This document shows, piece after piece, positions 1-26,417 of a stretch of DNA of 64,000 nucleotides; position 1 is the stretch's first letter; each line of letters begins with the position of its first letter. Below the pieces are notes generated by a model that saw only the letters and a program-made list of their open reading frames with translations, was not told the DNA's origin and did not search any database. The translations under genes and the position numbers were made by a program. Origin of the DNA: an uncultured Acidimicrobiia bacterium (lineage in GTDB: Bacteria > Actinomycetota > Acidimicrobiia > Spongiisociales > ZC4RG35); NCBI GenBank assembly GCA_963840175.1, contig CAWIXU010000004.1, positions 9,288 to 73,287 on the forward strand, written 5' to 3'.

Positions 1-400
1 ACTCGACATCTCGATTGACAATGCACCCGGCACCGTGATCATCGCTATGACCCAGGCCGGCAACTCTGGTACGCCTGGTCTGTTGGATACAGGTGACATG
101 ATCCTCATCTACTTCTCTGAGGATGTCGTTGTCGCTCCCGGTGCCACGATCCAGCTTCTCGACCCTGACGGAACCACCGCCACGATCACATGTGGCGTCG
201 AGGCGACTTGCGCCTCCGGTCCTGCCGACCAACTGTTGATCACGATTACGGTTGCACTGCCCACCTCCGGCGGGACCACGCCCGGCATCGAGAATCAAGC
301 CGAGATAACAGCGGTAGGCGGCATCACCGCCTCTGACAACGGCGCTGCGGTCAACACTGCGGATTCGAGCGTTTTCGGCCGCACATTCTTCGACTTCTAG
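1..400 (+). CDS. C-terminal fragment of a secreted/surface protein (Thr/Gly-rich, beta-rich). It probably continues from upstream of the window.
   Basis: ORF 35..400 has no convincing start. Its composition resembles the Big-like surface domains further downstream, and it ends 40 bp before an SLH protein gene. Confidence 0.3.
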   Translation, partial: LDISIDNAPGTVIIAMTQAGNSGTPGLLDTGDMILIYFSEDVVVAPGATIQLLDPDGTTATITCGVEATCASGPADQLLITITVALPTSGGTTPGIENQAEITAVGGITASDNGAAVNTADSSVFGRTFFDF

Positions 401-441
401 CAGTTGACTCCAACGGGGAACGTGAGCGTCCCCGGCAACGT

Positions 442-1154
442 TTGACACCCATAGTGTCGAGGAAAATTTCGTTTGGGTTGGTGGTCGTTCTGATGGGCCT
501 TCTTGCGTCGCCGGCACAAGCTCATCCGGTTCCGATCGACACCTCGAGCGTCGTGCCCGGCGACCACCCCCAATGCGGGGTTCACCGACATTGGAACCTT
601 CGACGCCACTACTCGGACCGCCATCAACTGCCTGGCGGCCTTCGGGATCGCGCAGGGCACCACTGCTGCGACCTATTCGCCCAACGCCAACGTCGCCCGC
701 TGGCAGATGGCGCTCTTTCTCATTCGTCAGGCCGAGGACCATGGCCTGACCGTACCGGCGCCGGTCGATCAGGGTTTCACTGATATCGGCGGGCAGGCAG
801 CGGCGACGCAGAGACGCGATCAATCAGGTCGCGCAGATGGGGATCAGCAGCGGGACGACTTCGACCACCTTTTCGCCCAACGACACTGTTACTCGCTGGC
901 AGATGGCGCTTTTCCTCTATCGACTCGCCGTTCAGGCCGGGGTGACGGTCACCGACGATCCAACCAGCGATTCCTTTAGCGACATCGGCGGCTACGGCAG
1001 CGAGATTCAAACCGCGATCAACTTCCTCGCGGACGGGCACATCGCGCTCGGAACCAGCGAAGGAATCTTCTCGGGCAACGTAAATGTCACCCGCTGGCAG
1101 ATGGCTCTGTTCATCACCCGGGTGCTGGCGGCCGACGGCATCACGCAGTCGTGA
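442..1154 (+). CDS. SLH-domain protein: signal peptide plus about three S-layer-homology repeats; frame disrupted.
   Basis: N-terminus MGLLASPAQA is signal-like. Repeated FTDIG...AINxLAxxGIxxGTxxxTFSPNxxVTRWQMALFLxR motifs (the SLH signature) appear in two overlapping frames, 503..979 and 837..1154. Confidence 0.6.
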
Positions 1155-1164
1155 GAGCGTATCA

Positions 1165-3255
1165 TGCGCCGTTTGCTCATCGTTTCGGCAGTTCTTGCGC
1201 TGATTGCGGGCTGATGGCACTGCCCGCCGGAGCGTTGGTTTCGGAGGCCTGTCCTTCCAACCTGCCCGCCGGAGCGCTTCGGTGACCTGGCCGGTTTGAG
1301 CACGGATGCTCTGGATGCCATCGATTGCGTTGCCCATTACAAGATCGCCGCAGGGCACCTCGGCGACGACATTCAGCCCCAATTCTTCTGTGCTTCGCTG
1401 GCAGATGGCCCTGTTCCTCACCAGAACGGTGACGGCTCTGGGAGTCGCCCTTCCCAACGGAGCCGGCCAGGGGTTCACCGACATCGGATCTATGCCGGCG
1501 GCGACCCAGACCGCCATCAATCAGATCCGCCAACTCGGAATCAGCCTGGGGACCTCCGCTACCTCCTTCAATCCGTTGGGCGTGGTGCCTCGCTGGCAAA
1601 TGGCTCTGTTCCTGAGCCGGCTCCTCTCAAGCGGTCGGGGTCTCGCTTCCCAACGGCGCCAGCCAGGGCTTCACCGACATCTCGGCCATGCCGGTCGGCG
1701 ACGCAGGTCGCGATCAACCAACTTCGCCAGCTCGGCGTCGCGCTGGGGACAACCGCAACCAGACCTTCTCGCCGTTCAGCGACGTCTTGCGCTGGCAGAT
1801 GGCGCTCTTCCTGGCCCGGTCGACCGAAACCGCGGGTGGCCTTCCGTTCCGATTGGCGGCGGCGCTGCCAGTCGACCACTCCTCCGACCTCGGGCACTGT
1901 CCCCTTGACAGTCACCGTCCGCAATCCCGACGGAAGCCTGGCCAGCGAACCGGCGAGTGGACGTGTTCGTGGCGGCATCGCTCGACAGCAACGGGCGCTG
2001 CGTGCTCGACAACGATGCTCATGTCAACGGAGGCGATGCCGGCTACCAACAGCAACTGCGTGCTCGACAACAATGATCCGCTCACCAATGGCAGCGGTGT
2101 CGTTACGGTCAACCTCACCCACGATGCGACTCAGGAAGTCGACACGATTTACTCCTGGACCGGCGAGGTCGGTGAAACGTTCGATTTGCAGGACGTCCGA
2201 GGCGAAGCGGCGGTGCAGCTCACCTGGGGTGCGGCTCCAACCGGCCTGACCATTCCAGCAAACGTGAGCGCCGGATTTGCTACGTCAGCGCGCGGTCAGG
2301 GCCCAACTGATCGGGCCCGGGGGCGCGGCAGTGACCCTGTCGGGTCAGAACATCAGGTTCACGGTGCAGCGCGGCAACCAGACGATTCTCACCCAGACGG
2401 TGATGACGGGAGCCGACGGAAGCGCCACTCTGACCTATGTCGGTCCGGCCGATCCTTCGGGAGCAGACGACGCTGCGGTCATCGACAACGTCACGGCGTT
2501 CTGGGACAAGGACCGGGACAACGTCGACGACGGCGCGGCCGAGTTCGACGACAGCGGCACCGTTACTTGGGACGATCTGCTTGCCCCCGGTTACGACCGC
2601 CTCTCTCAGCCAGAGTTCCTTGACGCAATCTGCTCGGCGAGTTCGCTTCGATCTCGGTCACCGTCCGCGACAAGTTCAGTCAGCCGATCGCCAACGCCGA
2701 CGTGACGTTCCAAACCGGACAGGCCGGTCCGACCGTCGCCACCACCAACGCCTCTGGAGTGGCCACTTTCCAGTACACGGTCGTTGGCACGGGCTTGGCG
2801 GACTCCGTCGACGCCAGCGTGGATCTCAATCGAGATGGCGACACCAACGATCCCGGTGACCTGGGCTTTGGTGGCGTCACCAACCTCATTCACTACTGGG
2901 TCGCGACCGCGCCGACGCTGGCCGGGATTGACCGTCGTTCGATGTGATTGCGATCAATGCCGGCGCCAACACGGTCGACGTCGTCCAGATCGGCACCGCC
3001 AACTACTACCGGCTCACCTACGACGCGAATGACCAGTTCAATGTCAACGGGGGTGGCTCGGAGAGCCTGGACCAGTTCGAGTCGGCATTGGTCGGTATGC
3101 TGCTTCCGGATCTCGACGGTCCGGGAGGCCAGGAGCTGATCGACCAATCCCTACTCCACACCTGCCGGCGCCGCCAGCGCGTTCCTGCTGAATACCTAGA
3201 GCACGCTCTGGCTAGCGCCTCGAGCGATTTTTGGGACGCGGAGCCGTCGCCGTAG
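1165..3255 (+). CDS. Large S-layer/surface protein with N-terminal SLH repeats and C-terminal Big-like Ig domains; several frame disruptions.
   Basis: Signal peptide MRRLLIVSAVLALIAG at 1165. At least four SLH repeats (TFSPNSSVLRWQMALFLTR, NPLGVVPRWQMALFLSR, FSPFSDVLRWQMALFLAR). From ~2280 the pieces read as Ig-like repeats (GSATLTYVGPAD, ASGVATFQYTVVG). Confidence 0.5.
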
Positions 3256-4292
3256 GGGCTCGGGATGTCTCCGAGGTCGCTCCCATCCGACTTCGAGCAG
3301 GCGGCGCGCCTCGGCGCCGATCCCGGCACCGGCCGCGACTCGGACCGCGAACGTGCCCATGACCTCGGGGCGTTCGGTCGAGTTGCGGACCACCACCAAG
3401 GGTCGTTTCAAAACCGACACCTCTTCGGCGATCCCTCCCGAATCTGAAATCATCAACGCCGCCTCGGCCTCGAGAGCCAAGAAAGTCGCGATAGCCGATC
3501 GGTTCAACGACCATGAGCTTGTGCGAGCAGAGGCTCCGAGGCCGAACTCCTCGGCCCGGGCGACCGAGCGAGGATGCAACGGCAGCAGGACCGGCAGTGG
3601 CAGCGAGGCGAGCTCGATTCAGAATGGTCGAGTACGTGTCTCGCGTCGTCGACATTCTCGGGTCGATGAAAGGTCGAGAGGATGAAGCGGCCGCTTCCAC
3701 GCCGATACCGAGCCAGAATTTCTCCTACGATCCGTGGGAGCAAGGCGGCGACCGCTTCGACCACCGTGTTGCCTGTCAACGCCACCCGTCCGCCGCGATC
3801 CCCTCGGCGTGCGAGGTTGTCGACCGAAGTTGGCGTCGGGGCGCAACAGAGGTTGCTCAGGTGGTCGGTGACCACCCGGTTGTGCTCCTCGGGCATCCCC
3901 CAGTCGTGGCTCCGCAGCCCCGCCTCGATATGACAGAGGAAGACCGAGCGGGCGTTGGCGGCGAGGGCTCCGGCCGTCACCGAGTTGGTATCCCCTTGAA
4001 CGAGGACGGCACGAGGCTGCTGCTCGGCGAATAGTTCGTCGAGTGAAGCGATGGCCGAACCGATCTGTTGGCCGCGGCTGATCCCGCCGACTTCGAGGAA
4101 GGTGTCAGGGGTTGGGAGGCCGAGGTCGCGGAAGAAGACCTCAGAGAGGTTGGGGTCGTAGTGCTGGCCGGTATGGACGACGAAGGCGGCGTCGCCCAGC
4201 AGATGAATGATGTGGGAGAGCTTGACGATCTCGGGCCGGGTACCCAGCACGACCGCGATTGACTTGGGTGGGAATCCGTACTGGTTGGTCAT
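3190..4292 (-). CDS. wecB: UDP-N-acetylglucosamine 2-epimerase (non-hydrolysing), frame disrupted near the C-terminal third.
   Basis: N-terminus KSIAVVLGTRPEIVKLSHII...HTGQHYD. C-terminal pieces MISDSGGIAEEVSVLKRPLVVVRNSTERPE and SPYGDGSASQKSLEAL lie in other frames. These are typical WecB/MnaA motifs. Confidence 0.8.
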
Positions 4293-4325
4293 AACCTCGG
4301 CCGGGCATGCTACGGGCTCTCCTCC

Positions 4326-5200
4326 TTGTTCTTGAGCTGGCCCTCATCGCCCTCATCGCCTACAACCTGCGTTGTCGCTCTGCTTTGGATGGAGAAATCC
4401 CGTGACGAGGGCCAGCGGCAGTCGCGCAGCCACCGCTTCGTCATCGTGATCCCCGCTTACAACGAGGAGCGCGTCGTTGTCGCCCGGCCGGTCGCCGATC
4501 TGACACCACAACTAAGGGAAGGTGACGAGTTGTGGGTGCTCGCCGACCGATGCACCGACGACACGGCCGAGGTGGCGCAGGCGGCCGGAGCGCGCGTCGA
4601 CCGAACGCTCCGAGCGGGCCCGACGGAAAAGGCACCGGCACTGGCATGGTTCGTTGCCAAGCGACCGCTAGTTAGCGACGAGGCGCTCGTCGTGATCGAC
4701 GCCGACAATCGGGTCCCCGGCAAGCTCCTCGATCGGTTCGGCGCCGAACTGACCGACGGGCACTCGGTGCTGCAGGCCTACCTCGATGTGGCCAACCCCG
4801 ACGAGTCGGCGTTGGCGACCGCCTCGGCACTCTCGTATTGGGCTTCGAACCGCATGGTCCAGCTGGCGCGGGCCAACCTGGGTTGGACAGCCGATCTCGG
4901 CGGCACCGGCATGTGTCTGACTTCTCGAGGCGCTGAACGCACGCGGGCGGATTCGGGACATCGTTGGTCGAGGACCAGGACCTCGGAGTTCGCTGCTTTC
5001 TCGCCGGACACCCGGTCCGTTGGCTGCACGACGTTCGAATCGCCGATGAGAAACCTCCCACGGCCACCGTCGCTGTACGCCAACGGTCACGCTGGACAAG
5101 TGGACGTCGTCAGGTCGCTCGCCGTTGGTTGGAGAAGGTTGTCAGCCGAGCGACAGCCGGCGTCGCTTGATCTCGCGCTTGCGTCTGGTGCAACCTTCGC
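4326..5200 (+). CDS. Family 2 glycosyltransferase with a membrane N-terminus; frame disrupted.
   Basis: FVIVIPAYNEERVV, VIDADNRVPGKLL, then DLGVRCFLAGHPVRWLHDVRIADEKP and QRSRW in a second frame. These are the GT2 DXD and QxxRW hallmarks. Confidence 0.6.
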
Positions 5201-5458
5201 GGATGGGGATGGCGTTGCTCAGCGCCGCGCTGGCCGTGGCCTCGGCTCTCGGCGCGTCCTCTGCTTGCCCTGGCCGTTGTGGACGGCGGTTGCGCTGGTC
5301 CAGTTGCTCGCCCCGATCCCGTTTCTGATCCGCGACCGGGTGCCGTCTCGCTATCTGAGGAAATATCCGCTGCTGGCGTTGCTCCCACTGCTCAAGATTC
5401 CGGGCACGCTTCGTCGCAACCGGGAGTGGTATCACACGCCCCACGGGTTATCGGACGG

Positions 5459-6380
5459 TTATCCGACTGGGCCCTGACGGCCCGGGGCGAGCGGAGTAGC
5501 CCGCGAACCAAGCCCGACGCCGTAACTCAGGTGCATGATCGCGATTGACCCAATACCTCGAGCAGCCGTCCCCGACTCGCCGAGGGCGAGCACCACGATC
5601 CAGACGACGATCAGGAGAAGCAGCGGCCACCAAATCGTGGTGAGCAGGCCGAAGGCGACCGCGACGACCAGGCCGAGAACCAGGGCTAGCGGAGCCAGCG
5701 GTCGCCATGACGGGAATTCGCCGTTGAGATAGAGCATGTCGGCCTTGCCCAGTCCGTATCGGTAGAACTGGCGCCACAGAGCTGCCGGTGTGGACCGGGG
5801 TCGATAGGTCGTACGGATACTAGGATCGATGAGGATCCGTCCTCCACGTTGGCGAAGTCGATAGAAGAAGTCGGCATCCTCGGCGACACGAGACGGCAGT
5901 GATCTCATCCCGCCGTTGGCGAGGAAAGTCTGCCCGGGTCATGGTTCCGAGATAGACGGTGTCACCTTCGGTTGGCTCCTCGGTGTGATGAAACGGCGCT
6001 GGTCCGATTCCGAACTTTCGAGCGGTAGGCCGCCGCGACCGCCCGGCCAAAAGCGTTGTCGCCTTGCGGACGCATCGGACCGCCGACCGCTGCGGCTCCC
6101 GAAGCGAGGAGTGCTTGCACCGAACGAGTTACGTAAGTCAGGGCCGTAGGTGGTGTGAGCATCGGCTCGGATCAAGACGTCGGCTGCGGTGTTGTCCGCG
6201 GCGAGGTTGAGCGCGTGCGATTGCAGGCGTCGGGGATTGTCGACGACGCGCAACCTTGGTAGGCGAACCAGCCAGCGGGCAAGATGTTCGGGAGTGGCAT
6301 CGGTGGAACCGCCGTCGGCGACAACGAGTTCCCACTCCCCGGCGTAGTCCTGTTCCTCAATGCTCTGCGAGGCATTCGTC
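5459..6380 (-). CDS. Family 2 glycosyltransferase; frame disrupted.
   Basis: LRVVDNPRRLQSHALNLAADNTAADVLIRADAHTTY (N-terminus) and EDADFFYRLRQRGGRILIDPSIRTTY plus a C-terminal transmembrane segment, across two minus-strand frames. Confidence 0.55.
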
Positions 6381-6450
6381 GATACTCCCGGCCTCGTTGA
6401 AGACCGGAAGCAACACAGCGACCGAGGGCAGTTGATTACGTTCTATCGCA

Positions 6451-7802
6451 ATGACGGATTCGGCCTGGCGCCAGCGGTTGTTTCTGGCAATGGTGGCGGT
6501 GCTCCCGCTTCATACCGTTTATCTAAGCGCCTGGATTTCGTGGAAGCCGTTCATGGTCCTCCTGGCCGTCCTGGCCCTGTGGGACCTGGGCGACGGCATT
6601 CGGCTCCGGCAGTGGCCATGGCACAAGCGAATCACGCTCGCGTTCCTTCCCTTGATGGTGGCGGTTGCGATCGGGTTCCCAGGTCCTGAGCTATCGCGAA
6701 CGATTCATCCGGCTCGCCTTAGCGCTTGTCGTCGGGTTCGGGGTGCTGGCAGTTACCGAGCGACGACTGCGCGGCGTCAGGAATGGGAGCGCGCACCCTA
6801 CGGGTCATCTTCTGGTCCGCGGCCGCCATGGCGGTGACCGGCCTGATCTTCTCGGTGCTGCTTCTCGGCCTCGGGGGGGACGAAGGAATCGACTACCTCA
6901 CAGGGTCGCGCGGTTACGACCTTCCTCTCCTCGACAAAATTGGCAAGCCCGCCTATCTCTTGTCGGGTTTCCTCGCGCTTTCCAACTGGCATCAGGACCC
7001 GGGCTATGGAGCCGCTTGGGCGGTCCTCTGGGCGACATTGGCCCTCATCGCTTCCCTCCGCGGCCTCGGAACCAAAAGTCCTCTGATCGACGGAGCGATC
7101 ATCGGTGTTCTTTGGTCCGCAGTGGTGATGGGATTCTCCCGCACCGGGTGGGTGGCGCTGGCCGTGTCGTTGGTTCTCGTGGCCTGGAAGGTGACACGGC
7201 GAGGATTGGTCAAACGGATCGTCGCTGCAACCGTTGCCCTGATCTTGTCGATGGGGCTTCTCTTCGTCGCTGATGTCGAGAATGTCGGGGGGGAGCTGCC
7301 ACTTCAGTTCGCCTTTCGGCTCCGTCAGGGCTGGGACCTCCTGGCATCGATCACCGGGCTGTTCGAGTCATCCGCAGCCTTCGAGGACCAGTTCCAGCCA
7401 TCCGAGCAACGGGCCGACGTCTGGCCGGAGTACTGGCAACTGTTCCTCGACCACCCGGTCACCGGGGTGGGCTTCGGGGTTGGCTGGGAAACCAACTCCA
7501 TCGGCCAGGAACCGCACAACTTGTTTCTCGAGCTCGGAGCAGAAACCGGGATCATCGGTCTCGTCGCTTTTGCGTTGTTGTTGGGCTTGATCATTCGCGC
7601 CGGCAGCGGAGTTCTCGGGGCGGTGGCGCTGACCGTGTCGTTCTTGCCTGCGTTCACCCAGACAGTGCTCTTCGAACCAACCTGGTGGTTCGCCGCCGGC
7701 CTGTTCTTGGCCGCGGGAGGGAAGTTCGAGGATGCCGCGGAGATGCCTGTAGAGTCGTCTGACGAGTCAGGGGTTGTCACCCCAAAACAAGCTGCTGCCT
7801 AG
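6451..7802 (+). CDS. O-antigen ligase/polymerase family (Wzy_C) polytopic membrane protein; one frame disruption.
   Basis: Many transmembrane segments. The motif HNLFLELGAETGIIGLVAFALLL is characteristic of the Wzy_C/O-antigen ligase domain. Confidence 0.65.
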
Positions 7803-7816
7803 GGTTTTGGCGCGCC

Positions 7817-9727
7817 TTGCGTCTGCCTGGAAAGCTGGAAGGAGCGATTTTGCGCTCGCCAATCAGACAACTCCTCGCTGTGATTTTGGCCTTCGGGCTT
7901 CTCGGCGCGAACCTGCCCGTCGCCCACGCGCAGACGACCGATCCGACGTTCACCGTCACCGGATCGGGATGGGGTCACATGGTGGGAATGTCCCAATACG
8001 GAGCGAGGGCGCTCGCCGCGAATGGATCTTCGGCTGCCGATATCACCGGCTTCTATTACGCCGGAACCACCGTGCGTCAAACCACGGACGTCGTTTCCAA
8101 CTTCATGGTCACCGATCCCGATCCGCTCTGGATCGGACTGTTGCAGAACCGGTCGACCTTCAACTTCCGCGTCGACGGCGCCGGACCGGTCGGCCTTTGC
8201 AAAGCCAACGACGGCGAGGGCGAATGTCCCACCCAATTCGCCCTCTCGGGAGAAACCTGGGAGTTCCGCGCGTTGGGCGGCGGTGCCTGCCAGTACTTCA
8301 AAGCCGGGGTGGCAGTTGGCAATCCCGGAACCTGTCGCGGGGCCCTGACCTGGGACTTTGGCACGGGAACGAAGATCTTCTCACCCGATAACGGGCGGAC
8401 ATATGCCCGGGGCATCATCCGCTTCCGTCCGGCCGGAGCCGGATTCCATGTGGTTCTCGAAATCAACATGGAGGGATATCTCTATGGGCTGGGGGAGATG
8501 CCCTCGAGCTGGCCGATGGCGGCGATGCAGGCCCAGGCGATCGCGGCGCGCACCTACGCCTTGCGACAGGCATTGCGATACGGGCCGGAAGAGACGCTTG
8601 ACGCCTCCCGGCAGGCGACCTGTTGGTGTCAGCTGGTCTCCACGGTGGCCGATCAGGCGTACGTGGGTTGGGGCAAGGAGGTGGAGTCGCAAGGAAACCG
8701 GTGGGTCGAGGCAGTCAACACCAGTGCCGGCCAAGTGATCACCCACCCCCAAGCACCGGACTCGACAGTGATCGTCGCCTACTACGCCTCCTCCACGGGA
8801 GGCCACACCGATAGGAATGTCGAGGGCTTGGGCCACACCAATCCCTTGCCTTATCTGGTGGCGACGCCCGACCCCTGGTCCGTGTCAGCCGCCGCGGCTA
8901 ACCCTTTCGCGACCTGGACGCGCACGCTGACCGCAGCCGAGATCGCCACGGCCTTCGGGCTGGAATCAGTCACAGGCGTGGAGGTGACCCGACGCAATGG
9001 CTCCGGTACGGTGGCAGAGGTCACCATTGCCGGCACGCTTGGCGGACAGTCGACACTTCTTGTGCGCAGCGGCCGTAGTTTTCGTGATGCGTTTGCGATG
9101 CGTTCCACTGCCTACGCGATCAGCGGCGGGAGCGGGATCGGGACCGCCATCTGTGACGGCGTACCGCCCCCGGCGGGGTTCACCGATGTCGCGGTCGGCA
9201 ACATCCATTCCGAGGGAATCAACTGCCTGGCCGCCCTGGAGATCACCACCGGGACCACCGCCACCACGTTCTCGCCCGCCCAGGCGGTGAGCAGGTGGCA
9301 GATGGCAGTCTTCTTGATCCGCACCGCTCACGCCCTCGGGATTGCGGTGCCGGCACCCGTGCCGCAGGGATTCACGGACCTAACCGGCATGGCTCTCACC
9401 ACCGTCGATGCGATCAACCAGCTCAAACAACTCGGGGTCACCTCGGGAACGACCCCGACGACCTTTGCCCCCAACGCCAGCGTGTCCCGCTGGCAAATGG
9501 CGCATTTCCTCACCCGTCTTTTCGCGATCGCCGGCGGCGCACCGGCCGGAGCTGGCGCAAGCTTCAGTGATCTCAACGGCCTGAGCCCCGAGACGATCGC
9601 GGCGATTGGCCAGCTGGCCGGTCTGGGGATCACGCTCGGGACGGGTCCCGGGACCTTCGGCCCCAACGACGTGGTCACCCGCGAACAGATGGCGACCTTC
9701 CTCACCCGCCTGATCCGGCTCCTTTAG
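7817..9727 (+). CDS. SpoIID/LytB-domain protein with three C-terminal SLH domains (a fusion of an amidase-enhancer domain to a cell-wall anchor).
   Basis: Signal peptide; GWGHMVGMSQYGARALA and YYASSTGGHTD (SpoIID/LytB motifs); three C-terminal SLH repeats (TFSPAQAVSRWQMAVFLIRT, FAPNASVSRWQMAHFLTRL, FGPNDVVTREQMATFLTRL). Continuous ORF. Confidence 0.75.
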   Translation: MRLPGKLEGAILRSPIRQLLAVILAFGLLGANLPVAHAQTTDPTFTVTGSGWGHMVGMSQYGARALAANGSSAADITGFYYAGTTVRQTTDVVSNFMVTDPDPLWIGLLQNRSTFNFRVDGAGPVGLCKANDGEGECPTQFALSGETWEFRALGGGACQYFKAGVAVGNPGTCRGALTWDFGTGTKIFSPDNGRTYARGIIRFRPAGAGFHVVLEINMEGYLYGLGEMPSSWPMAAMQAQAIAARTYALRQALRYGPEETLDASRQATCWCQLVSTVADQAYVGWGKEVESQGNRWVEAVNTSAGQVITHPQAPDSTVIVAYYASSTGGHTDRNVEGLGHTNPLPYLVATPDPWSVSAAAANPFATWTRTLTAAEIATAFGLESVTGVEVTRRNGSGTVAEVTIAGTLGGQSTLLVRSGRSFRDAFAMRSTAYAISGGSGIGTAICDGVPPPAGFTDVAVGNIHSEGINCLAALEITTGTTATTFSPAQAVSRWQMAVFLIRTAHALGIAVPAPVPQGFTDLTGMALTTVDAINQLKQLGVTSGTTPTTFAPNASVSRWQMAHFLTRLFAIAGGAPAGAGASFSDLNGLSPETIAAIGQLAGLGITLGTGPGTFGPNDVVTREQMATFLTRLIRLL

Positions 9728-9775
9728 TCCTATTTCCTCTGTAGGGAGAGTTGGGCGCGGCCGATTGATGACAGG

Positions 9776-10960
9776 ATGGCGGTTGTTGGCAATGGACCCG
9801 AAACAGAGTGCAGGCGTGACGTCGAAGAGCTGGACTCACCGCGGGGCTTCAAGGCACCGGGCACTGCTCGCATGATCGCCGGCTCGCTGGTCGGCGCGGT
9901 GGCGGCCTACCTCTTCCAGGTGCGTCGGCGTGCGCAGCGTCTGGGGACGGAAGCCTTCGCGCCGATCGCCGTCCTGTGGACCGTCTTCTTCATCGTCGCC
10001 ACTGTGATCGTCTGATTCCTCTGGAGCATTTCGTGACCCGCGAGGTGGGGCGAGGACGACGGGTGCTGCGTTCGGATCGAGCGGCGATGATCCTCTGATC
10101 CTCCTCTCACCGGCAACGCTGATCGCGGCTGTTCGTATTATCTGATGCGGGACCGCCTCTTTGCCGGCGAGTCGATCTTTGCGTTCCAGGCCTTCCTTCT
10201 GACGATCGGGTTTGGATTGATGCAGGTCGGCAAAGGCATCCTGGCCGGACATCGGCAGTTTGCTCGTTACGGGGCGCGTCCTGGGCTCGAAGGAATCATA
10301 CGGCTCTTGGCGGCCGTCATCTTCCTCGCGCTGTCGGCCAGCGCCGTCTCGCTCGGTTGGGCCATGGTGGCCGCGCCTCTCGGCGATCTTCTTCGTCACG
10401 ACCCTGGAGCCACGATCGGGAGACCGTCGCCGGAGTCGTCGCGACGCCGGCCCGCGGGTTCTTGTCTTCTTACGTTGCGGGCGCGGCAGCTTCCCAGCTT
10501 CTACTGGCCGGAGCCCCGCTCGCGGTAGCAGCTCTCGGTGGCAACGAGCATCTGCGTAGCGTCATGTTCGTCACCTTCACTCTGTATCGGGCGCCGCTGA
10601 CGCTGATTTACAACCTGCAGGGCCGAGTTCTTTCACTCCTGGTCCGCCTCGAAAACGGCGACGCGATTCGACGTCTGGATCGACCAGGGTGGCGACCTTC
10701 GGAGTCGGCATGATCGCGGTCGCCGGTCTGGTCGGATGGTTGGTCGGGCCGGCCGTCGTCGAGCTGCTTTACGGGCAGGATGCTCGTCCGATCGCACTCG
10801 TCGCAGCTTGTGCGGCGGCCGGCGTTATCGCCGCCTCGATCACGCAGATCCTTTCGCAGGCGCTGGTGGCGGGAGGATCAACCGGCGAGTTGGCCGGCGC
10901 GTGGGTCGGCGGCCTCGTCGTCGGGCTGGGGACGATGGCGCTTCTGGAACGGGCCTCCCG
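9776..10960 (+). CDS. Polysaccharide biosynthesis/export membrane protein (MOP-superfamily flippase, Wzx/MurJ-like), fragmented over at least four frames.
   Basis: Successive hydrophobic pieces (LVGAVAAYLFQ..., FQAFLLTIGFGLMQ..., LLAGAPLAVAALGG..., VGMIAVAGLVGWLVGPAVVELLYG...) with flippase-like character and no soluble domain. Confidence 0.4.
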
Positions 10961-11029
10961 ACGTGCGAGTGGCGGTCGGCTTCCTCGCCGGCGGAGGTTG
11001 TTCGCCCTGGCTTTGGCGACTTGGCGCAT

Positions 11030-11450
11030 TCTCCGTCCGCGTTGACATCCACTCGATATGCGCTCGCCGCAATGCCGGCGACATTCTCTTGATGGCCCCG
11101 TCATCGAGGGGTTGAATTCGGTCCCGAGCGATGATCACGTTCCCGTCGAGGTGAACGAGCCCGGCTGATAGCAAAGTCGAGAGGTGCAAGGGCCGCCGTA
11201 GGGAGTTGCCGCGGAAACCTGCTTGCACGATGCGCAACAGGTCAGCGATCGCTTCTACGCCCAGAACTGCGGACCAAAATCTCCGGACGTACAGATCGGT
11301 TGGGGCGAACCCGGACTCGCTTTTCATGATGGAGACGAGATAGAGCGGACGGCGGGCGACTGTCGGTCGGAGCGCCTCGTCCGGAAGCGGTGCGGCCAAT
11401 GTTGCATAGGGAGGACATGGCAACGGCTTCCGGGACGAGACACTCCTCAC
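11030..11450 (-). CDS. Hypothetical protein, possibly a winged-helix regulator-like fold.
   Basis: Minus ORF 10878..11450. The central part LYLVSIMKSESGFAPTDLYVRRFWSAVLGVEAIADLLRIVQAGF...PLHLSTLLSAGLVHLDGNVIIARDRI looks protein-like; the tail is low complexity. No family recognised. Confidence 0.25.
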
Positions 11451-11565
11451 GCTTACGAAGTATCAAGAACCGTTAACTACCGTCAAGTCCCTTAGAAACC
11501 TTCTTTTCGCGACTTCTGGATGCTTCAGCTTCTCCCCGGAGCGGGGATAGCGCGCGATCGCGTTT

Positions 11566-12126
11566 TCTTCCCCCGGAGGGGGGAGTACCCGAGCGAAGCG
11601 AGGGGGTAGGGGGCGTTTTCTCGAGACCCAGGAGCTCAACCCTCTTCTATTCCCCTCGAAAAGGAACTACTCGTTCAACATGGCCCGACCCCGTCACACC
11701 GACCTCGCCGCGAACGAGAGCACGGGAGCTTCAGAAACGGGATGACCGTCTCAGAGGCGCGGGTGTGGCAGGTGATCCGCGGCGGACAATGCGGCGCCCG
11801 GTTCCGTCGGCAGGTTCCGATCGGACGGTGGATCGTCGACTTCGCCAGTCTGCAAGCCACGACTGGTGCTCGAAATCGATGACGAGTCACACGACTGGCG
11901 TGACGAAACGGAACGCATCGAGTACATCGAAGCGGAGGGTTTTCCGATTTTGCGGCTGACAAACAAATACGTCGCCGAGGACCTCGGCGCCGTTCAGCGA
12001 ACGGTGAGCTTGTGGGTGGCGGAGCTCAAGGCAGGGCGAAGGCCGGAGTAGGGATCGCGTCTGGAGAGAACGCCCCCCTCGTCTGCCTCCTTCGTCGGCA
12101 GACACTCCCCCCTCCGGGGGAGAAAC
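11566..12126 (+). mobile_element. Copy 1 of a ~560 bp element bounded by ~50 bp imperfect G-rich terminal inverted repeats, carrying a disrupted DUF559 ORF. Extra partial inverted-repeat satellites lie at 11529-11548 and 12131-12150.
   Basis: Left end TTCTTCCCCCGGAGGGGGGAGTACCCGAGCGAAGCGAGGGGGTAGGGGGCGTT. Right end AACGCCCCCCTCGTCTGCCTCCTTCGTCGGCAGACACTCCCCCCTCCGGGGGAGAAAC, approximately its reverse complement. About 85% identical to copy 2 at 41559-42118. Confidence 0.7.
11680..12051 (+). pseudogene. DUF559 (Vsr/endonuclease-like) ORF of element copy 1, frame-disrupted in the middle.
   Basis: MTVSEARVWQVIRGGQCGARFRRQVPIGRWIVDFAS then shift, then LEIDDESHDWRDETERIEYIEAEGFPILRLTNKYV. Compare the intact copy at 41675..42043. 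Confidence 0.65.
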
Positions 12127-12175
12127 GGGAGATCCCCTCCGGGGGGAGAAATTCAGGTCTGGGGATGAAACGGAT

Positions 12176-14752
12176 TTAGCCCGAGGGTGGCGCAGGGGCG
12201 GCGGCCTGGCCGACGGTGATGTACACCGGGCTCTTGTACGTCATCGCCGTTCCCGGCCCGGGGGTCTGAGCGAGAACGACATCGACCTGGGCGGGGTCGG
12301 TGACCGGCACGTAGGTCGCGTACACGTCGACCCAGGTCCCAGTTGAGTAGATGAATCGGTTGATCGTTCGGTAGGCCTCGCTGATCGGTAGGCCGATCAC
12401 ACTCGGCAACGCGCCGCCAGGGACCTGGCCGTTCGAGACATATATACGAATCGGAAGCCCGGCTTCGACTTCGGCTCCCGAACCGAGCGACTGGAAAACG
12501 ACGGTGCCCGCGGCCTGCAGCGAGGGAATCGGGGTTCACGTTGGGGATGAGTTTGGCCTCGGTCGCCAACGACACTGCCTCGGCTTCGGTCTTGCCGATG
12601 AGATAGGGAACGATGGTGGTCGGGGGCTTGAGGAACGGCTGGAGCTCCTCTTCGGTCAGGCGTGGAAAGTCGAGTGCTTCGACATCGGTCAGCACCATCC
12701 GCATGAACTCGGCCCAGATCGGAGCCGGGACCGAACCACCGAAGACCCGTTCGTAATACTCACCGTGGATGCGAACGTTGCGCAGGGGAACCTGATCTCG
12801 CTCGTACCCCACCCAGACCGCAGTCGTGTACTGCGGAACGAAACCGACGTACCAGGCGTCGCGATAGTCCTGGTGGGTGCCGGTCTTTCCACCCTGGGGC
12901 CGACCGATGGCGGCTCGCTCGGCCGTTCCTTCCGCGGTCGGCACTTCGAGCAGCGGGATTCGCGCTGCCTCGGCGATCGGCGCGGCGATCACCTGCTGCT
13001 GCTCGACCTGGTGCTGGTAGAGCACCTGGCCGTCCTCGTCGAGGATGCGGTCGATCAGATAGGGCTCGGCGTAGAGGCCGTTGGTGGCGAAGGACGAATA
13101 GGCGGAAGCCATCTCCAAGGTCGAAACTGCACCGGTCCCCAGCACGATCGAAGGCACCGGCTGGCAGCGGTGAGGTGATCCCCATTCGGTGCGCGGTCTC
13201 CACTACCTTCTCCGGCCCTACCTGCAAGGAGAGCTGGGCGTAGATCACATTGATCGATCGAGAGGTGGCTTCCTGGAGGGTGATGCGGCCGGCGCTGGCC
13301 CCGGCATTCGACACGGTCCACTTGTTGGGATCGGGCCCATCCGAGCAGATCGTCGGGCAGGTCAGGATGCGAGGGCTCGACCCGTCATATGTGTTGCCGA
13401 GCGTGATGCCGTTCTCGAGCGCCGCGACCAGACCAAACGGCTTGAACGCCGAACCGGGGTTACGTCGACCCTGGACGGCGAGGTCGAACTGGCTCTGTTC
13501 GAAGGGGAGCCCCGAAGCCATCACCTCGACCGCCCCGGTCTGGTTGTTGACCATCGTCAAAGCTCCAGTTGGTGAGCAAGAGTTGGCCTCGGCGTACGAG
13601 GTCAGGTTCTCGATCGGCTCGCTGGGAAAGATTCTCGTGCAGAGTTGCAGGTTCTCTTCGTAGGAATAGAAGGGGAGCCACTCGAGCAGCATCGCATTCG
13701 CCGCTTGCTGCAAATTGAGATCGATGGTCGTTTCGATGGTCAGGCCCCCGCCACCGACGCAGTTGACATCGTCGGATGGGCAACCGAAGACCGAGATGGC
13801 GCGCTCCTCCAGGGTCTGGCCGAGAAAATCGAACTCGTGACGCGAGAGGTCGGACAGCTGCCGCATCACCTCGGTGCGCACGTGTTCCGCCTCGCCGCGG
13901 AACTCGATGTGCTCGAGCACCCCAAGGGGTCTTGACTTGGCGATCTCCGCCTGAGATTCAGTGGTCCAGTCCTGTTCGAGCATGAGGTCGATGACGTCGT
14001 TGCGCCGATCGAGAACTACCTCTGGATTGTCGCCGAGGGTCGTAGAGCGAAGGGTTGCGGATGAGCACCGCGAGGGTGGCGGCCTGATCCAGGGTCAGCT
14101 CGGACATCTCGCGGTGGAAGAACTCACGGGCCGCGGTCTTGACCCCGTAGGCGCCGGCACCGAAGTAGACCGAGTTCATGTAGAACTCGAGGATCTTGTC
14201 CTTCGAGTGGCGACGCTCGAGCTCGGCGGCGATAAACGCCTCTTTGATCTTCCGCTCGATCGTGACCTCGTCGCCGACGAAGACGTTTTTCACGACCTGC
14301 TGGGTGATGGTCGAACCGCCGCGGGTGTTGCCGCTGCGGAAGTTGTCGAGGGCAGCCGAGGCGATGGCCGGGAACGAGACGCCCTGATGGTCGTAGAAGC
14401 CTTTGTCCTCCGCCGCCAGGATCGCGTGTTGAAGGAGCAACGGCACCTCGTCGATCGGGGCCGGCTCGGAGTTGCGCCCGTCGTGGAGCTCGCCGATGAT
14501 TTCTCCGCTTGCCCATATCCGCGACACCCGTGACAGGTCGGGGAGGGTCAGAGTCAACGTCTCGACTTCAGGGACGTACTCGGCTCTTACCTTGTCGATG
14601 GCGGCATAGGCGGAGTTGGCGCCGAGGAAAGTGAAGAGGCCAACCCAGGTGCTGCCCAGGAGCGCGATCGACAGCAGTCCCGCCAGAGCCGGGAACCAGC
14701 GGCCACGACGCTCGCGCGCTTCCAGTTGGTGGATGAGGGATCGATTGGCCAT
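12176..14752 (-). CDS. ponA: Class A penicillin-binding protein (transglycosylase + transpeptidase + C-terminal PASTA); frame disrupted.
   Basis: N-terminal transmembrane segment; EDKGFYDHQGV and GGSTITQQVVKN (GT51); SAFKPF (SxxK) and KTGT in the transpeptidase part; PASTA-like C-terminus (12176..12409). Confidence 0.8.
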
Positions 14753-14826
14753 AAATCAACCGGAGCCAAAGTCGAATGGATAGTCCCCGGTAGCATCAAA
14801 GGTTACCTCTCGACGTCAGGTATTCC

Positions 14827-16377
14827 TTGCGCACTCCCAGCGGAATCGAAATCGAGGTTGTCTACGACCAACCCGCCGATCCCGACAAAATCGGCAGTCC
14901 GGGTGAGTATCCGTTCACCCGCGGCCCTCATCCCACGATGTATCGCGGACGGCTCTGGACGATGCGTCAGTACGCCGGCTACGGCACCGCCGACGCCACC
15001 AATCGCCGGTTTCGTGAGCTCCTCGCCGCCGGGCAGACCGGCCTATCGACTGCCTTCGACCTGCCGACGCAGATGGGACTCGACAGCGACCACCCGTTGG
15101 CCGAGGGAGAGGTCGGCAAGGTCGGAGTGGCGATCGACACCCTCGACGACATGCGCCGTCTCTTTCGGGAGATCCCTCTCTCCGAGGTGTCCACCTCGAT
15201 GACGATCAACGCCACGGCTCCGATCCTGCTCCTGCTCTATCAGCTGGTGGCGGAGGAGCAAGGCGTCGATGGCAAGGAAATCCGGGGCACCGTGCAGAAC
15301 GACATCCTCAAGGAGTACGTCGCCCGCGGCACCTACATCTACCCGCCGGGGCCGTCGATGCGGATCGTCACCGACGTCTTCTCGTACGCGGCCAAGGAGC
15401 TCCCGGCCTTCAACCCGATTTCGATCTCCGGCTATCACATCCGCGAAGCCGGCTCCACCGCCGCCCAGGAACTCGCGTTCACGATCGCCCATGGCCTCGC
15501 CTACGTGGATGCCGCCCTGAAAGCCGGCCTCGACATCGACGACTTTGCTCCCCGGCTCTCATTCTTCTGGAACAGCCACAACCTCTTCTTCGAGGAGGTA
15601 GCCAAGTTCCGTGCAGCCCGCCGATTGTGGGCCGACCTGATGCGGAATCGCTTCGGAGCCAAAGACGAGCGGTCGTGGGCGATGCGGTTCCACACCCAGA
15701 CCGCCGGTTCGACTCTGACCGCGCAGCAGACCGGAAACAACGTGGTGCGCACGACCGTCCAGGCCATGGCCGCCATCCTCGGAGGGACGCAATCGCTGCA
15801 CACCAACTCTTTCGACGAGGCCGTTGGACTGCCGACCGACGAATCGGCCCGTCTCGCCTTGCGGACCCAGCAGGTACTCGCCCACGAATCCGGCCTCGCG
15901 GATGACAGTCGATCCGCTGGCCGGCTCCTACTTCGTCGAGGAGCTCACCAACCAGCTCGAAGCCTCGGCCCGCTCACTGCTCGACGCAGATCGAAAGGAT
16001 GGGGGGCGCGGTGGCGGCAATCGAGAGCGGGGTGGACGCAACGTCAGATCGAAGAGGCGGCCTACGAAGAGGCCCGTCGCCAGGAGTCAGGCGAATCGAT
16101 CGTGCTCGGGGTGAACCGATATGTAGTCGGCGATGAGGCTGAGATTCCGGCGTTGAGAATCGACCCTGAGCTGGAGCGCGAGCAAAAGGCGCGCCTCGGC
16201 CAATGGAAGGCAGAGCGCTCGGCAACTGAAGTCGAATCCGCCCTCGACGCCGTCACCATCGCAGCCGGAGACGGGACCAATTTGCTTTATCCCATGAAGG
16301 AAGCGCTTGTCGCCGGTGCAACCTTGGGCGAGTGTTCCGAGGCGATGCGGGCCGTGTTCGGGAGCCACCGACCGTGA
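14827..16377 (+). CDS. Methylmalonyl-CoA mutase-family catalytic (TIM-barrel) subunit without a fused B12-binding domain; one frame disruption near 15900.
   Basis: YPFTRGPHPTMYRGRLWTMRQYAGYGTA, TAFDLPTQMG, HTNSFDEAVGLPT, and a C-terminus ending VFGSHRP. This is the typical MCM/ICM large-subunit N-domain. Confidence 0.75.
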   Translation: MRTPSGIEIEVVYDQPADPDKIGSPGEYPFTRGPHPTMYRGRLWTMRQYAGYGTADATNRRFRELLAAGQTGLSTAFDLPTQMGLDSDHPLAEGEVGKVGVAIDTLDDMRRLFREIPLSEVSTSMTINATAPILLLLYQLVAEEQGVDGKEIRGTVQNDILKEYVARGTYIYPPGPSMRIVTDVFSYAAKELPAFNPISISGYHIREAGSTAAQELAFTIAHGLAYVDAALKAGLDIDDFAPRLSFFWNSHNLFFEEVAKFRAARRLWADLMRNRFGAKDERSWAMRFHTQTAGSTLTAQQTGNNVVRTTVQAMAAILGGTQSLHTNSFDEAVGLPTDESARLALRTQQVLAHESGLADDSRSAGRLLLRRGAHQPARSLGPLTARRRSKGWGARWRQSRAGWTQRQIEEAAYEEARRQESGESIVLGVNRYVVGDEAEIPALRIDPELEREQKARLGQWKAERSATEVESALDAVTIAAGDGTNLLYPMKEALVAGATLGECSEAMRAVFGSHRP

Positions 16378-17730
16378 CCACCGACCCCAAGCGAACCCGC
16401 TTTCTGATTATCGGCGCCGGCCCGGCCGGCACCGCCGCCGCCACCAACGCGGCCGCGCTAGGCGCAAAGGTCACTCTGGTCGAGGACCAGATCGTCGGTG
16501 GCGCGGCCCATCTTTGGGATTGCATTCCCTCCAAGACCATGATCGCCACCGCCGTGCGGATCGACTCGATGCGCAACGCCCCCCGGCTCGGGGTGACCGC
16601 CGCGCCCGGGCAGCGTCGACAGCGCCCAACTAGCCGAGCGAATCTCCATCATCTCCGGCGACATCAACCGCAGCTGGGTCGACCTCCTCAGCAGCCAGGC
16701 GGTCGAGATCATCAACGGGAAGGCCCGGCTGACCGGTCCAATCAGGCGATCGTCGAGGGAGATGACGGCGAACAGCACCGATCGAGCTTTGACGTCTGCC
16801 TGCTCTCGACCGGCTCGGCTCCCGCGTGTCCCGGCCTGGGCAGTCATCGACGGAGAACGAATCCTGACGACTCGCGACGCCTACGACCTCGAGCGAGGTG
16901 CCCGAACAGTTGATCGTGATCGGTTCGGGGGTCACCGGAGTCGAGTTCGTGCACATCTTCGAGTCGCTCGGTTCGGACGTCACCCTGGTGGTCAGCCGTC
17001 AGCAGATCCTTCCCCACCGCGATCCCGAGGTCGCAGCGGTGCTGGAAGAGAACTTCCTCGAAAGCGGGAGTGCGTCTGGTCATCGGCGCTCGCGCGATCG
17101 GGATTGATCGAACCGAAGACGGAGTCAGGGTTCGCTGCGACGACGGGCGGGTGGTCGAAGGCACCCACGCCTTGCTGGCGATCGGCTCGGTCCCGAACAC
17201 CGACTGATCTCGGACTGGGCGAGCTCGGCATCAAGGAGAGCGGCGGTTTCATCCAGGTCGACGAGCATCAGCGGACCTCGGTTCCCCACATCTATGCCGC
17301 AGGAGACTGCACCGGCCAGTTGCTGCTTTCCTCGGTGGCTGCAGTGCAGGGCCGGAAGATCGCCCGTCACGCGATGGGCTTGCCGGTCACACCGATCGAC
17401 TACTCCAAGGTGAGCCAGGCGATTTTCACTGAGCCCGAGATCGCCTCGGTCGGCCTTGAGGAGGCCGAGCTGGCCGCGGGAGGTCGCAAGGTGCGCACAA
17501 CCAAAGTGCCCTTTGCCGCCAACGCTCGGGCGGTGCTGCAAGGAAATCCCCGCGGCTTCGTCAAAGTCATGTCGGATCCCGCCACCGGAGTCGTCCTGGG
17601 CGGGAGCATCGTCGGCCACCGCGCCTCGGAGCTGATCGGGATCATGGCCCTCGCGGTCAAAGCGCGGGTCACGGTCAACGTCCTCGTCGACACCCTGATG
17701 GTGCACCCCTCCTCTCGGAAGCGATCAGCG
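16374..17730 (+). CDS. Flavoprotein disulfide-reductase family (LpdA-like NAD(P)H-quinone reductase, single-Cys CIPSKT type); frame disrupted.
   Basis: FLIIGAGPAGTAAA (FAD fold), WDCIPSKTMIA in place of CVNVGC, a second NAD fold (VIGSGVTGVEF), and a C-terminal dimerisation region. The GTG start overlaps the mutase stop. Confidence 0.6.
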
Positions 17731-17740
17731 AAGCAGCGGA

Positions 17741-17775: not shown

Positions 17776-17799
17776 TCGTTGTAGCCAACGTTCGTGAAC

Positions 17800-21909: not shown

Positions 21910-21911
21910 TA

Positions 21912-25054: not shown

Positions 25055-26377
25055 ATGACCACTGATCCCGATTCCAGTCCCCGTTTCAACGCGTCCACCC
25101 GCTCCCAACGGCCGCTGGTGGAAGCGCCTGGTGATCGGACTTTCTGGTCCTCGCCAACCTGGCTGTTGGCCTGGTTCTCTTCGCCCTCCACTCGAGCCAG
25201 GCCGCATTTGTCGCCAACGCCACCCAGAACACGGACGTCACTCCCGAACTGACGTTCGGCCCACCGCCAAGTCAGAGCCGCTCACGTTTTTGGTGATCGG
25301 CTCCGACACCCGTGAGGGCCTCGACAGCCTGCAGAACTTCGGCGAGTCGGAGGGGGCGCGCGGCGACGTGATCATGCTGATCAAGCTCTACCCCGATGGC
25401 GGCCGCGCCCAGATCCTCTCGCTTCCCCGGGACCTCCTGGTCGACATTCCCGGCCAGGGCACCGATCGAATCAATGCCGCATACGCCTTCGGTGGCGCTC
25501 CGCTGATGGTCCGCACCGTCGGGCAAGCGACCGGTCTCCCCGATCCACCACTACGTCGAGATCGATTTCGTCGGCTTCCAGTCGCTGGTCGACGAGATCG
25601 GAGGCGTCTACATCGACTTTCCCTACGCGGCCCGTGACGCCAACAGCGGATTGTCCGTCGAAGCGGCCGGCAGCTGCTCGACGGCTCCCAGGCTCTCGCC
25701 TATCGCCCGGTCGCGCCACTACGAGGAATTGCAGGACGACACCTGGGTCAGGTCGACGCCGACGACATCGGCCGCACCCGGCGCCAGCAGAGCCTGATCC
25801 TGGCGATCCTCTCGGAGCGTCAAGACTCCTTCGACCCTGACCGAAGCAGGATCGATCGTGGCGTCTTTGCCCAGCACCTGACTGTCGACTCGGCATTCGC
25901 CCGATCGTCGCTGGTCGAGTTGGCCTTTCGGATGCGTTGCATCTCGGCCGCGACGATGGAGACGGCAACCTTGCCCGGTTTACATCGACGACTACGAAGG
26001 CATGTCAGTCGTGAGCATGAGCCATCCTGAGGCGGACAGCATGATCGTCGCCTTTGCCGAACGGGTCAGCCGCTGCAGCGCCGATGACCGAGGCGCTTCG
26101 TTTGCAGGTCCTCAACGGCAACGGAATCAAGGGCTCTGCCGGGCGATGGGCGACCTCCTCGAGGAACAGGGTTTCGAGGTTGCTTCGGTCGGCGATGCCG
26201 AGCGGAACGACTTCGAGACCACGACCGTCATCGTTCGTCCCGGAGGCCTTCGGCCGGCTCAAGCGCTCGTCGACGCCCTTGGGTTCGGCGAGGTTTCGAC
26301 TGGCAGTCTTGACCGACGGCATCGACGCCGTGGTCATCGTCGGATTGGATGCTGACAGGACGGCCCAGACCGGTTAG
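25055..26377 (+). CDS. LytR-CpsA-Psr (LCP) family phosphotransferase with a C-terminal LytR_C domain; frame disrupted.
   Basis: N-terminal transmembrane segment; FLVIGSDTREG...GDVIMLIKLYPDGGRAQILSLPRDLLVDIPGQGTDRINAAYAFGG; C-terminal LQVLNGNGIKGSAGR...VLTDGIDAVVIVGLD. Confidence 0.7.
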
Positions 26378-26417
26378 CTTTTCCAAACGGGGCGGTATCG
26401 CAGGGGAGTCAATCGGA

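Follow-up and report, generated by a model that had tools for sequence, protein, structure and literature searches.

A conserved cell-surface glycan gene set beside three SLH proteins in an uncultured member of the Acidimicrobiia

When S-layer homology (SLH) proteins are encoded among genes for glycan assembly, do those genes make the polymer to which the SLH proteins are anchored? This question is raised by positions 1-11050 of a 64,000-nucleotide stretch of contig CAWIXU010000004.1, from an uncultured Acidimicrobiia bacterium (the whole stretch is called the window below), which a first-pass annotation had interpreted as a Wzy-dependent assembly line for a secondary polymer of the cell wall (SCWP), lying beside its SLH clients. 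The region was found to hold a conserved cell-surface glycan gene set beside three SLH proteins, and an anchor-polymer role for it is plausible but unproven. The interpretation favored here is that the locus encodes a conserved module for assembling a wall glycopolymer, and that the SLH proteins encoded with it probably bind the product. It is held with about even confidence, and its second half, the identity of glycan and ligand, is partly supported, by association. To our knowledge, what is understood of SLH surface display comes almost wholly from work on Firmicutes and diderm Terrabacteria. A search of the accessible literature found no paper tying SLH proteins to Acidimicrobiia, and SLH and CsaB have been reported as retained in a few Actinobacteria (bioRxiv 10.1101/2021.05.31.446380).

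With the SpoIID-SLH protein of the locus as query, 46 related loci were recovered, almost all from metagenome-assembled genomes (MAGs) of Acidimicrobiia, and homologous clusters of this protein number in the hundreds, the named ones belonging to Acidimicrobiia/Actinomycetota. The nearest relative, L001 (CAVXIT010000007.1, MFD09206.bin.1.94), shares ~91-92% DNA identity over window positions 416-20095, while L002, a megahit short-read Illumina MAG, is syntenic over 520-17742 at 70-79% identity. Two further sequences were compared, a 2.93-Mb ENA contig (ERZ28493282; L048) and a contig of the nearest relative L001 (L049). The mycobacteria-like background proposed at first was not borne out: the host belongs to an Acidimicrobiia MAG lineage, as do almost all of the related loci, which rules out a mycobacteria-like host, and the likeness reflects generally shared actinobacterial gene content.

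Since the G+C content of the window is ~63-65%, raw lists of open reading frames (ORFs) were noisy, and a codon-usage scan showed that the coding frame switches repeatedly over 1-11 kb. Pfam was run on stop-to-stop pieces and on X-joined pieces; the scan took in the pieces of the locus and, for 16-64 kb, those in the best frame, obvious housekeeping ORFs being left out. On the stop-to-stop pieces, the SLH (PF00395), Big_1, UDP-GlcNAc 2-epimerase, two family-2 glycosyltransferase (GT2), Wzy_C and SpoIID-SLH families were all significant at the sites first assigned to them within 1-11050, and Rfam gave nothing within the locus. Its nine genes are as follows.

2..400, plus strand: 3' end of a gene for a surface protein, its start lying left of the window (tblastn with the upstream protein of L002, 45% identity over 130 aa)
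442..1154, plus strand: small secreted SLH-only protein with three SLH repeats (Pfam SLH at 494-976 and 750-1151; SLH motifs at 698, 894 and 1092)
1215..3255 (start approximate), plus strand: large SLH and Ig-like protein with an N-terminal SLH triplet (Pfam SLH at 1300-1905; SLH motifs at 1396, 1591 and 1790)
3196..4304, minus strand: non-hydrolysing UDP-GlcNAc 2-epimerase of the wecB/mnaA type (Pfam Epimerase_2 on two frames, 2 frame changes)
4326..5477 (Pfam piece 4263-5474), plus strand: GT2a, predicted membrane-embedded GT2 of the BcsA/hyaluronan-synthase type (Glyco_tranf_2_3)
5459..6442, minus strand: GT2b, a second GT2 whose C-terminal part includes a hydrophobic, putatively membrane-spanning stretch (Glycos_transf_2 at 5942-6442; Glyco_trans_2_3 at 5462-5938)
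6490..7802 (Pfam piece 6723-7799), plus strand: Wzy_C-domain polytopic membrane protein of the O-antigen polymerase/ligase superfamily (Wzy_C, E 4e-20)
7817..9727 (start codon uncertain; Pfam piece 7763-9724), plus strand: SpoIID/LytB protein with a C-terminal SLH triplet (SpoIID, PF08486, E 2.5e-16; SLH, E 5e-23, in 3 stretches)
9737..11045 (pieces 9728-11042), plus strand: Wzx-like MOP-superfamily flippase of ~410 aa (tblastn frames 2/1/3, 59-86% identity to the L002 protein)

The last six of these recur as a unit. In the related loci, as well as in L048 and L049, the order wecB (minus), GT2a (plus), GT2b (minus), Wzy_C (plus), SpoIID-SLH (plus) and flippase (plus) is repeated, and many Acidimicrobiia assemblies carry the module in synteny and unbroken. 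Immediately after SpoIID-SLH comes the flippase in ~20 of 27 orthologous Acidimicrobiia loci, and Wzy_C is placed before SpoIID-SLH in at least 14. The locus represents a compact, widely conserved six-gene module in a class that is abundant in environmental metagenomes, and offers a concrete candidate for wall building or decoration in uncultured Acidimicrobiia, with testable parts: an SLH trimer, an epimerase, a small synthase-like GT2 and a Wzx without family assignment. In some loci an ECF sigma/anti-sigma pair (DUF5667) or an IS110 transposase, by Pfam, is inserted between GT2b and Wzy_C. The module is usually followed by a methylmalonyl-CoA mutase gene (plus) and, before it, by the following conserved neighbor.

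12176..14755, minus strand: class A penicillin-binding protein (PBP) with PASTA domains (the L002 orthologue matches Pfam Transgly, Transpeptidase and PASTA)

Beyond the module in L048 (11707-20023) are an inositol-monophosphatase-family (CysQ-like) gene and a CitMHS/Na-sulfate-symporter-type transporter, and also, after the flippase, a fused ATP-sulfurylase/APS-kinase for the synthesis of 3'-phosphoadenosine-5'-phosphosulfate (PAPS) and two large GT4 proteins; these genes hint at a sulfated surface glycan in that relative.

Is the locus functional in the bacterium at hand? Seven of the nine genes are split in the window by 1-nt indels (the first gene has its 5' end beyond the window edge), so that, while three proteins with SLH triplets are indeed encoded, only the SpoIID-SLH gene is an unbroken ORF. 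Compared with L002, where all genes of the locus read as single clean ORFs, there are at least five frame changes in the large SLH gene, about two each in the small SLH gene, wecB, the N-terminal part of the Wzy_C gene and the flippase gene, and at least one in GT2b. GT2a matches the window in one frame but at 52% identity, versus 71% for L001, and was therefore inferred to carry compensating shifts. The methylmalonyl-CoA mutase gene is clean, as is SpoIID-SLH, and a further downstream gene, past the PBP, is also frame-shifted.

If the frameshifts were true mutations, the SLH/glycan system would be in the course of being lost, a scenario that we regard as very unlikely. It would be compatible with the uneven density of the indels, which reaches 5-11 per kb over 1-7 kb and falls to none in 7851-9819 (~2 kb, SpoIID-SLH) and 14764-15899 (~1.1 kb, the mutase), and with their lying mostly outside homopolymers (61 of 83 1-nt insertions are not beside an identical base). 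However, essential and housekeeping genes are equally affected, including the class A PBP (3 frame changes; tblastn frames -1/-2/-3/-1), the biotin carboxylase and carboxyltransferase subunits of acyl-CoA carboxylase, S-adenosylhomocysteine hydrolase (SAHH) and an Lpd-like gene, as are the LytR-CpsA-Psr (LCP) and UDP-glucose dehydrogenase genes (examples of indels lie in 12176-14755, 20420-23122, 25059-27719 and 40279-41523). In L001, wecB, GT2a, GT2b and Wzy_C are intact, and the PBP of this 92%-identical relative breaks at positions other than those of the window. Once the indels had been aligned out, comparison of the window with L001 gave dN/dS values of 0.08-0.22 for broken genes, similar to the 0.07-0.08 of intact genes, and revealed no nonsense substitutions in genes of the locus. 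There is also a strong bias towards +1 insertions, 91 of the 123 indels of a length not divisible by three being insertions in the window relative to L001, and insertions near GACGC number 18 against 3.8 expected, both of which fit systematic consensus error; contigs from the project of the nearest relative show the same kind of breaks.

Because housekeeping genes are hit, break positions differ from those of a close relative, dN/dS is low and nonsense substitutions are lacking, the breaks are read as long-read consensus errors. Pseudogenisation specific to the locus was rejected on account of the PBP breaks, the differing break sites and the dN/dS values, and a single methylation motif as the source of the indels was rejected on the grounds that enrichment is only partial, GACGC being found in ~20% of cases. 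Consensus error accounts only partly for the uneven density and the partial GACGC bias, but judged from the sequence comparisons the breaks are most probably sequencing or consensus errors, and the locus should be regarded as functional. Apparent pseudogenes in this assembly should likewise be treated with caution, as consensus errors and not as genome decay.

The three SLH proteins differ in architecture. The small one has a signal-peptide-like start, in a different frame from the rest; the gene occupies three frames in the window (tblastn frames 2 then 3), and the orthologue in L002 has 239 aa. In the large one, the SLH triplet is followed by Big_1 matches (Pfam) at 2268-2702 and 2624-2944, and tblastn with the 746-aa L002 orthologue gave high-scoring segments in frames 1/2/3/1/2/1. 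The SpoIID-SLH protein (657 aa in L002) resembles SpoIID/LytB remodelling proteins in carrying a SpoIID domain, by Pfam and also by TIGR02669 (134 bits for the orthologue versus a cut-off of 83), but differs from them in its C-terminal SLH triplet and in being set inside a glycan-assembly cluster. We know of no sporulation in this Acidimicrobiia lineage. The partial gene at 2-400 is the tail of a homologue of a GH26-like SLH protein in L049, and also of a Big_5-like protein at the start of L002, where the Big_5 match was below the Pfam cut-off. Upstream in L049 (1-5830) are encoded a methyltransferase, the permease and ATPase of an ABC-2 pair, and two more SLH proteins, one of 205 aa and the GH26-like one of 465 aa, and as these two lie upstream the SLH gene cluster is taken to extend past the left edge of the window.

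A motif scan of the whole 64-kb window found nine SLH repeats, arranged as three triplets with ~195 nt spacing, and all of them are located between 698 and 9703, within 9.7 kb of the glycan genes. In Paenibacillus alvei SpaA, SLH-Arg43 and the backbone amides of SLH-Gly29, within the TRAE and GIIxG motifs, hold the pyruvate ketal of the polymer, while ManNAc stacks on SLH-Trp13 in groove 2 (PMC6081394). The frameshift-free repeats of the window keep both SLH-Gly29 and SLH-Arg43, with a GxxxG-type motif 14 residues before the arginine, and the equivalent of TRAE reads [ST]R[WE]Q or, more broadly, [ST/A/P/L]R[WE]Q.

What, then, would the glycan genes make? For the epimerase, on the minus strand, the piece 3507-4343 covers positions 13-199 of the Epimerase_2 profile and the piece 3199-3618 covers positions 216-317 (E 6.5e-54 and 5.9e-13, respectively). 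The L002 orthologue (384 aa; 82% and 69% identity to the two window pieces) scores 261 bits against the TIGR00236 wecB equivalog model, above the cut-off of 210. A supply of UDP-ManNAc is consequently credible, in line with the earlier proposal that the enzyme makes ManNAc.

Glyco_tranf_2_3 reaches only profile position 174 of 230 in the window copy of GT2a, while the L002 orthologue is full length (387 aa). The orthologues show an N-terminal helix, a C-terminal helical bundle and the D, DxD (DAD), ED (EDQ) and QRxRW motifs, of which DAD, EDQ and QRxRW are invariant in two orthologue alignments (A2 and A5); this stretch appears partly out of frame in the window, the second half of the gene looking locally shifted there. 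Their best sequence matches in the Protein Data Bank (PDB) are to BcsA. Structure prediction, which had been proposed for the two glycosyltransferases, gave a BcsA/hyaluronan-synthase-like fold for this one: an AlphaFold2 model of orthologue P0245 (mean predicted local distance difference test, pLDDT, 89.8) had a template-modelling (TM) score of 0.68 to BcsA and up to 0.66 to hyaluronan synthases. The value of 0.68 is query-normalised, over the glycosyltransferase domain and helices, and the target-normalised score is 0.39 (only 0.39-0.53 across synthase targets), so that a translocation channel is not implied by the match. With ~390 aa versus ~730-890 aa, and with no PilZ domain or partner subunits, GT2a is also far smaller than BcsA. 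Homologues bear the JGI name 'cellulose synthase/PNAG synthase-like'. From the model, GT2a appears to be a small synthase-like membrane GT2, and may be processive. GT2b occupies at least two frames in the window, its intact orthologues have 314-347 aa (~320 aa in L002), and its PDB profile matches were the membrane GT2 PcManGT, chondroitin/heparosan synthases and dolichol-phosphate mannose synthase.

The Wzy_C protein has its N-terminal ~95 residues in two other frames (tblastn frames 1, 2, 3) and intact orthologues of 449-481 aa (481 aa in L002). A sequence search of the PDB found no solved relative, and the sole NCBIfam match of an orthologue was to the O-linking oligosaccharyltransferase TfpM, at E 3e-6 and 26.5 bits, far below the cut-off of 600. 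On sequence grounds, the Wzy_C domain by itself fits a polymerase, a ligase or an O-oligosaccharyltransferase alike.

The flippase, a 444-aa clean ORF in L002 with 2 frame changes in the window, gave no Pfam, NCBIfam or PDB-sequence match, either as window pieces or as the intact orthologue; phmmer with Escherichia coli WzxC did not find it, and none of 120 listed homologues carries a Pfam domain. Many homologues are named 'O-antigen/teichoic acid export membrane protein' by JGI. The AlphaFold2 model of orthologue P0128 (pLDDT 90; predicted TM score, pTM, 0.87) had as its top match the WzxE lipid III flippase (9g9p, TM 0.71), followed by MATE and MurJ structures. The MOP flippase of the first-pass annotation is thus upheld by fold only, through an orthologue model, as a predicted Wzx-like protein, sequence families having given no match. 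In two relatives, it is associated with a WbaP/WcaJ-type sugar-phosphate transferase, which in L035 is fused to the C-terminus of the Wzx-like protein (5481-7409, minus strand) and in L021 is a separate protein encoded directly upstream of it (6696-8009, plus strand), and these arrangements tie the flippase to polyprenyl-phosphate-linked glycans.

To call the assembly Wzy-dependent, as first proposed, is an oversimplification. As in the Wzx/Wzy pathways for O-antigen, enterobacterial common antigen and capsule, the locus clusters a WzxE-fold flippase of similar size (~410 aa), a Wzy_C protein, cytoplasmic-face glycosyltransferases and a precursor gene, and in relatives a WbaP/WcaJ-type initiator is fused or adjacent to the flippase. 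Unlike those pathways, neither an initiating phosphoglycosyl transferase nor a chain-length regulator was found in the locus or elsewhere in the scanned window, WcaJ-type enzymes being seen only by the flippase in L021 and L035, and one of its GT2s is synthase-like. Processive GT2 synthases normally act without Wzx/Wzy.

The favored reading, a wall-glycopolymer module supplying the SLH ligand, can be set out as a series of steps. The WecB-type epimerase, assigned to its family through the orthologue, would make UDP-ManNAc, and the two membrane GT2s would build a glycan on polyprenyl-phosphate at the inner membrane face, on substrates presumed for them and, for GT2a, with the fold described above. 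The initiating phosphoglycosyl transferase would be encoded elsewhere in this lineage, as opposed to beside or fused to the flippase as in relatives. The Wzx-like transporter, by its modelled fold, would flip the lipid-linked glycan outward, and the Wzy_C protein, by its sequence family, would polymerise or transfer it. LCP enzymes attach wall polymers to peptidoglycan, and one of them could join the product to the wall; a candidate is encoded outside the locus, 15 kb downstream of the module.

25059..26352, plus strand: LCP protein, candidate wall-polymer ligase (Pfam LytR_cpsA_psr and LytR_C; three frames)

Finally, the SLH triplets of the small SLH, SLH-Ig and SpoIID-SLH proteins would bind the anionic polymer through the conserved SLH arginine. 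The arrangement is like the SLH-SCWP systems of P. alvei and Bacillus anthracis (SpaA/SlhA and Sap/EA1) in its SLH triplets, adjacent epimerase, Wzy/WaaL-clan protein and nearby LCP protein, and, for P. alvei SpaA, in the conserved SLH-Gly29 and SLH-Arg43. In P. alvei, the MnaA epimerase is reported to feed SCWP synthesis (PMC11464976), and in B. anthracis the Wzy/WaaL-clan proteins WpaA and WpaB have been implicated in the SCWP (PMC6030368).

Several observations weigh against this reading. First among them is the pyruvyl transferase. The statement that no csaB is visible in the window holds for the scanned pieces, in which Pfam found no match to CsaB (PF04230, PS_pyruv_trans), nor any to TagO/WecA (PF00953, Glycos_transf_4) or TagA (PF03808, Glyco_tran_WecG). 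Six-frame ORFs of at least 60 aa from ~0.7 Mb, comprising the window and 48 related loci, gave no phmmer match to E. coli WcaK, and the same ~0.7 Mb contained none of the P. alvei CsaB peptide motifs taken from published primers. Pfam assignments computed beforehand for L048 and L049 likewise contained no CsaB. (By Pfam, csaB is not among the genes that vary from relative to relative in the GT2b-Wzy_C interval, and a search of the PDB with WcaK, made to obtain a CsaB sequence, gave no match.) Secondly, SLH-Trp13 is absent from the six fully readable repeats, where the position 30 residues before the arginine is T, E, A, I, T and E. Thirdly, in L006 a DegT aminotransferase is found at the place of wecB, and ManNAc is thus not universal to the module. 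Lastly, some Wzy_C proteins act instead as protein O-oligosaccharyltransferases or as ligases. In contrast to the P. alvei and B. anthracis systems, then, CsaB, TagO and TagA were not found in the scanned window or the related loci examined, Trp13 is missing, TRAE is replaced by [ST]R[WE]Q, the glycosyltransferases are a pair of membrane GT2s, of which one is synthase-like, and the host is a member of the Acidimicrobiia. The claim of SCWP assembly beside SLH clients accordingly survives as conserved envelope-glycan genes interleaved with SLH genes, but CsaB, TagO and TagA, which define the pyruvylated-SCWP route, are missing from the sequence scanned, and Trp13 from the readable repeats.

Another explanation is that the locus is an S-layer-glycan (slg)-type cluster, in which the Wzx-like protein flips a lipid-linked glycan that the Wzy_C protein, as an O-oligosaccharyltransferase, then transfers to the SLH-Ig protein. 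WsfB, WsaB and PglL are O-oligosaccharyltransferases, the Wzy_C domain is common to such enzymes, and TfpM was, far below cut-off, the only NCBIfam match; moreover, the glycan genes adjoin putative surface-layer proteins, and the L049 methyltransferase and ABC-2 transporter pair, ~8 kb upstream, presumably resemble ABC-transporter-type S-layer glycan clusters. We nevertheless consider it unlikely. The tightest conserved neighbors, SpoIID-SLH and the class A PBP, point to wall assembly and not to decoration of one protein, the large SLH-Ig protein is encoded away from the module in several relatives, and the Wzy_C protein has neither a PDB relative nor a sequence feature that tells an oligosaccharyltransferase from a polymerase or ligase.

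A different possibility is that the product is a polysaccharide of the wall or the cell exterior (teichuronic-like, capsule or exopolysaccharide, maybe a β-glycan made by GT2a) and not the SLH ligand, the SLH genes being nearby as envelope genes cluster; the SLH ligand would then be, for example, modified peptidoglycan, or another polymer with csaB-dependent synthesis encoded elsewhere. The BcsA/hyaluronan-synthase likeness of GT2a and the names of its homologues would fit this, as would the missing csaB, tagO and tagA near the module in the loci examined and the lack of SLH-Trp13. The exchange of the precursor gene (DegT in L006) and the PAPS genes of L048 are typical of variable surface polysaccharide loci. 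On the other hand, the position of SpoIID-SLH between the Wzy_C and flippase genes is maintained in many divergent genomes, which is hard to explain without functional coupling, and the SLH arginine and glycine that bind an anionic ligand are conserved. This explanation, too, we consider unlikely.

A more speculative reading, which we would rate as doubtful, is that SLH anchoring in Acidimicrobiia is independent of CsaB: trimers lacking Trp13 and carrying an RWQMA motif would bind a non-pyruvylated anionic polymer (uronic-acid-bearing, sulfated or otherwise acidic), made by a hybrid route combining a small BcsA/hyaluronan-synthase-like GT2 with Wzx-like and Wzy_C proteins. If true, insertion of the polymer would be coupled to the remodelling of peptidoglycan by the SpoIID protein, itself tethered through SLH domains, beside a class A PBP.

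The remainder of the window holds a number of other features. A repeat of ~560 bp is present in two copies, at 11570-12150 and 41570-42150, which are ~85% identical, each with a DUF559 (endonuclease-like) ORF and flanked by the G/C-rich palindromes CCCCCGGAGGGGGGAG ... CTCCCCCCTCCGGGGGG. Copy one is located in the gap separating the flippase and class A PBP genes, where several relatives have small ORFs of similar size. The LCP gene opens an actinobacterial envelope region (25059-36224) that continues with UDP-glucose dehydrogenase, cofE, cofD, a GT2-like ORF (29381-30505), a DUF5719 protein (31673-33511) and a large membrane protein without Pfam match (34578-36224). Phosphomannomutase, SAHH, secA, ftsEX and smpB genes are also encoded, and beside smpB is a tmRNA (53671-54024, minus strand; RF00023, 157.7 bits), the only Rfam match in the window. 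At 18889-20445, on the minus strand, is a 519-aa ORF without Pfam match that has a signal-peptide-like start and a Thr/Ser-rich linker.

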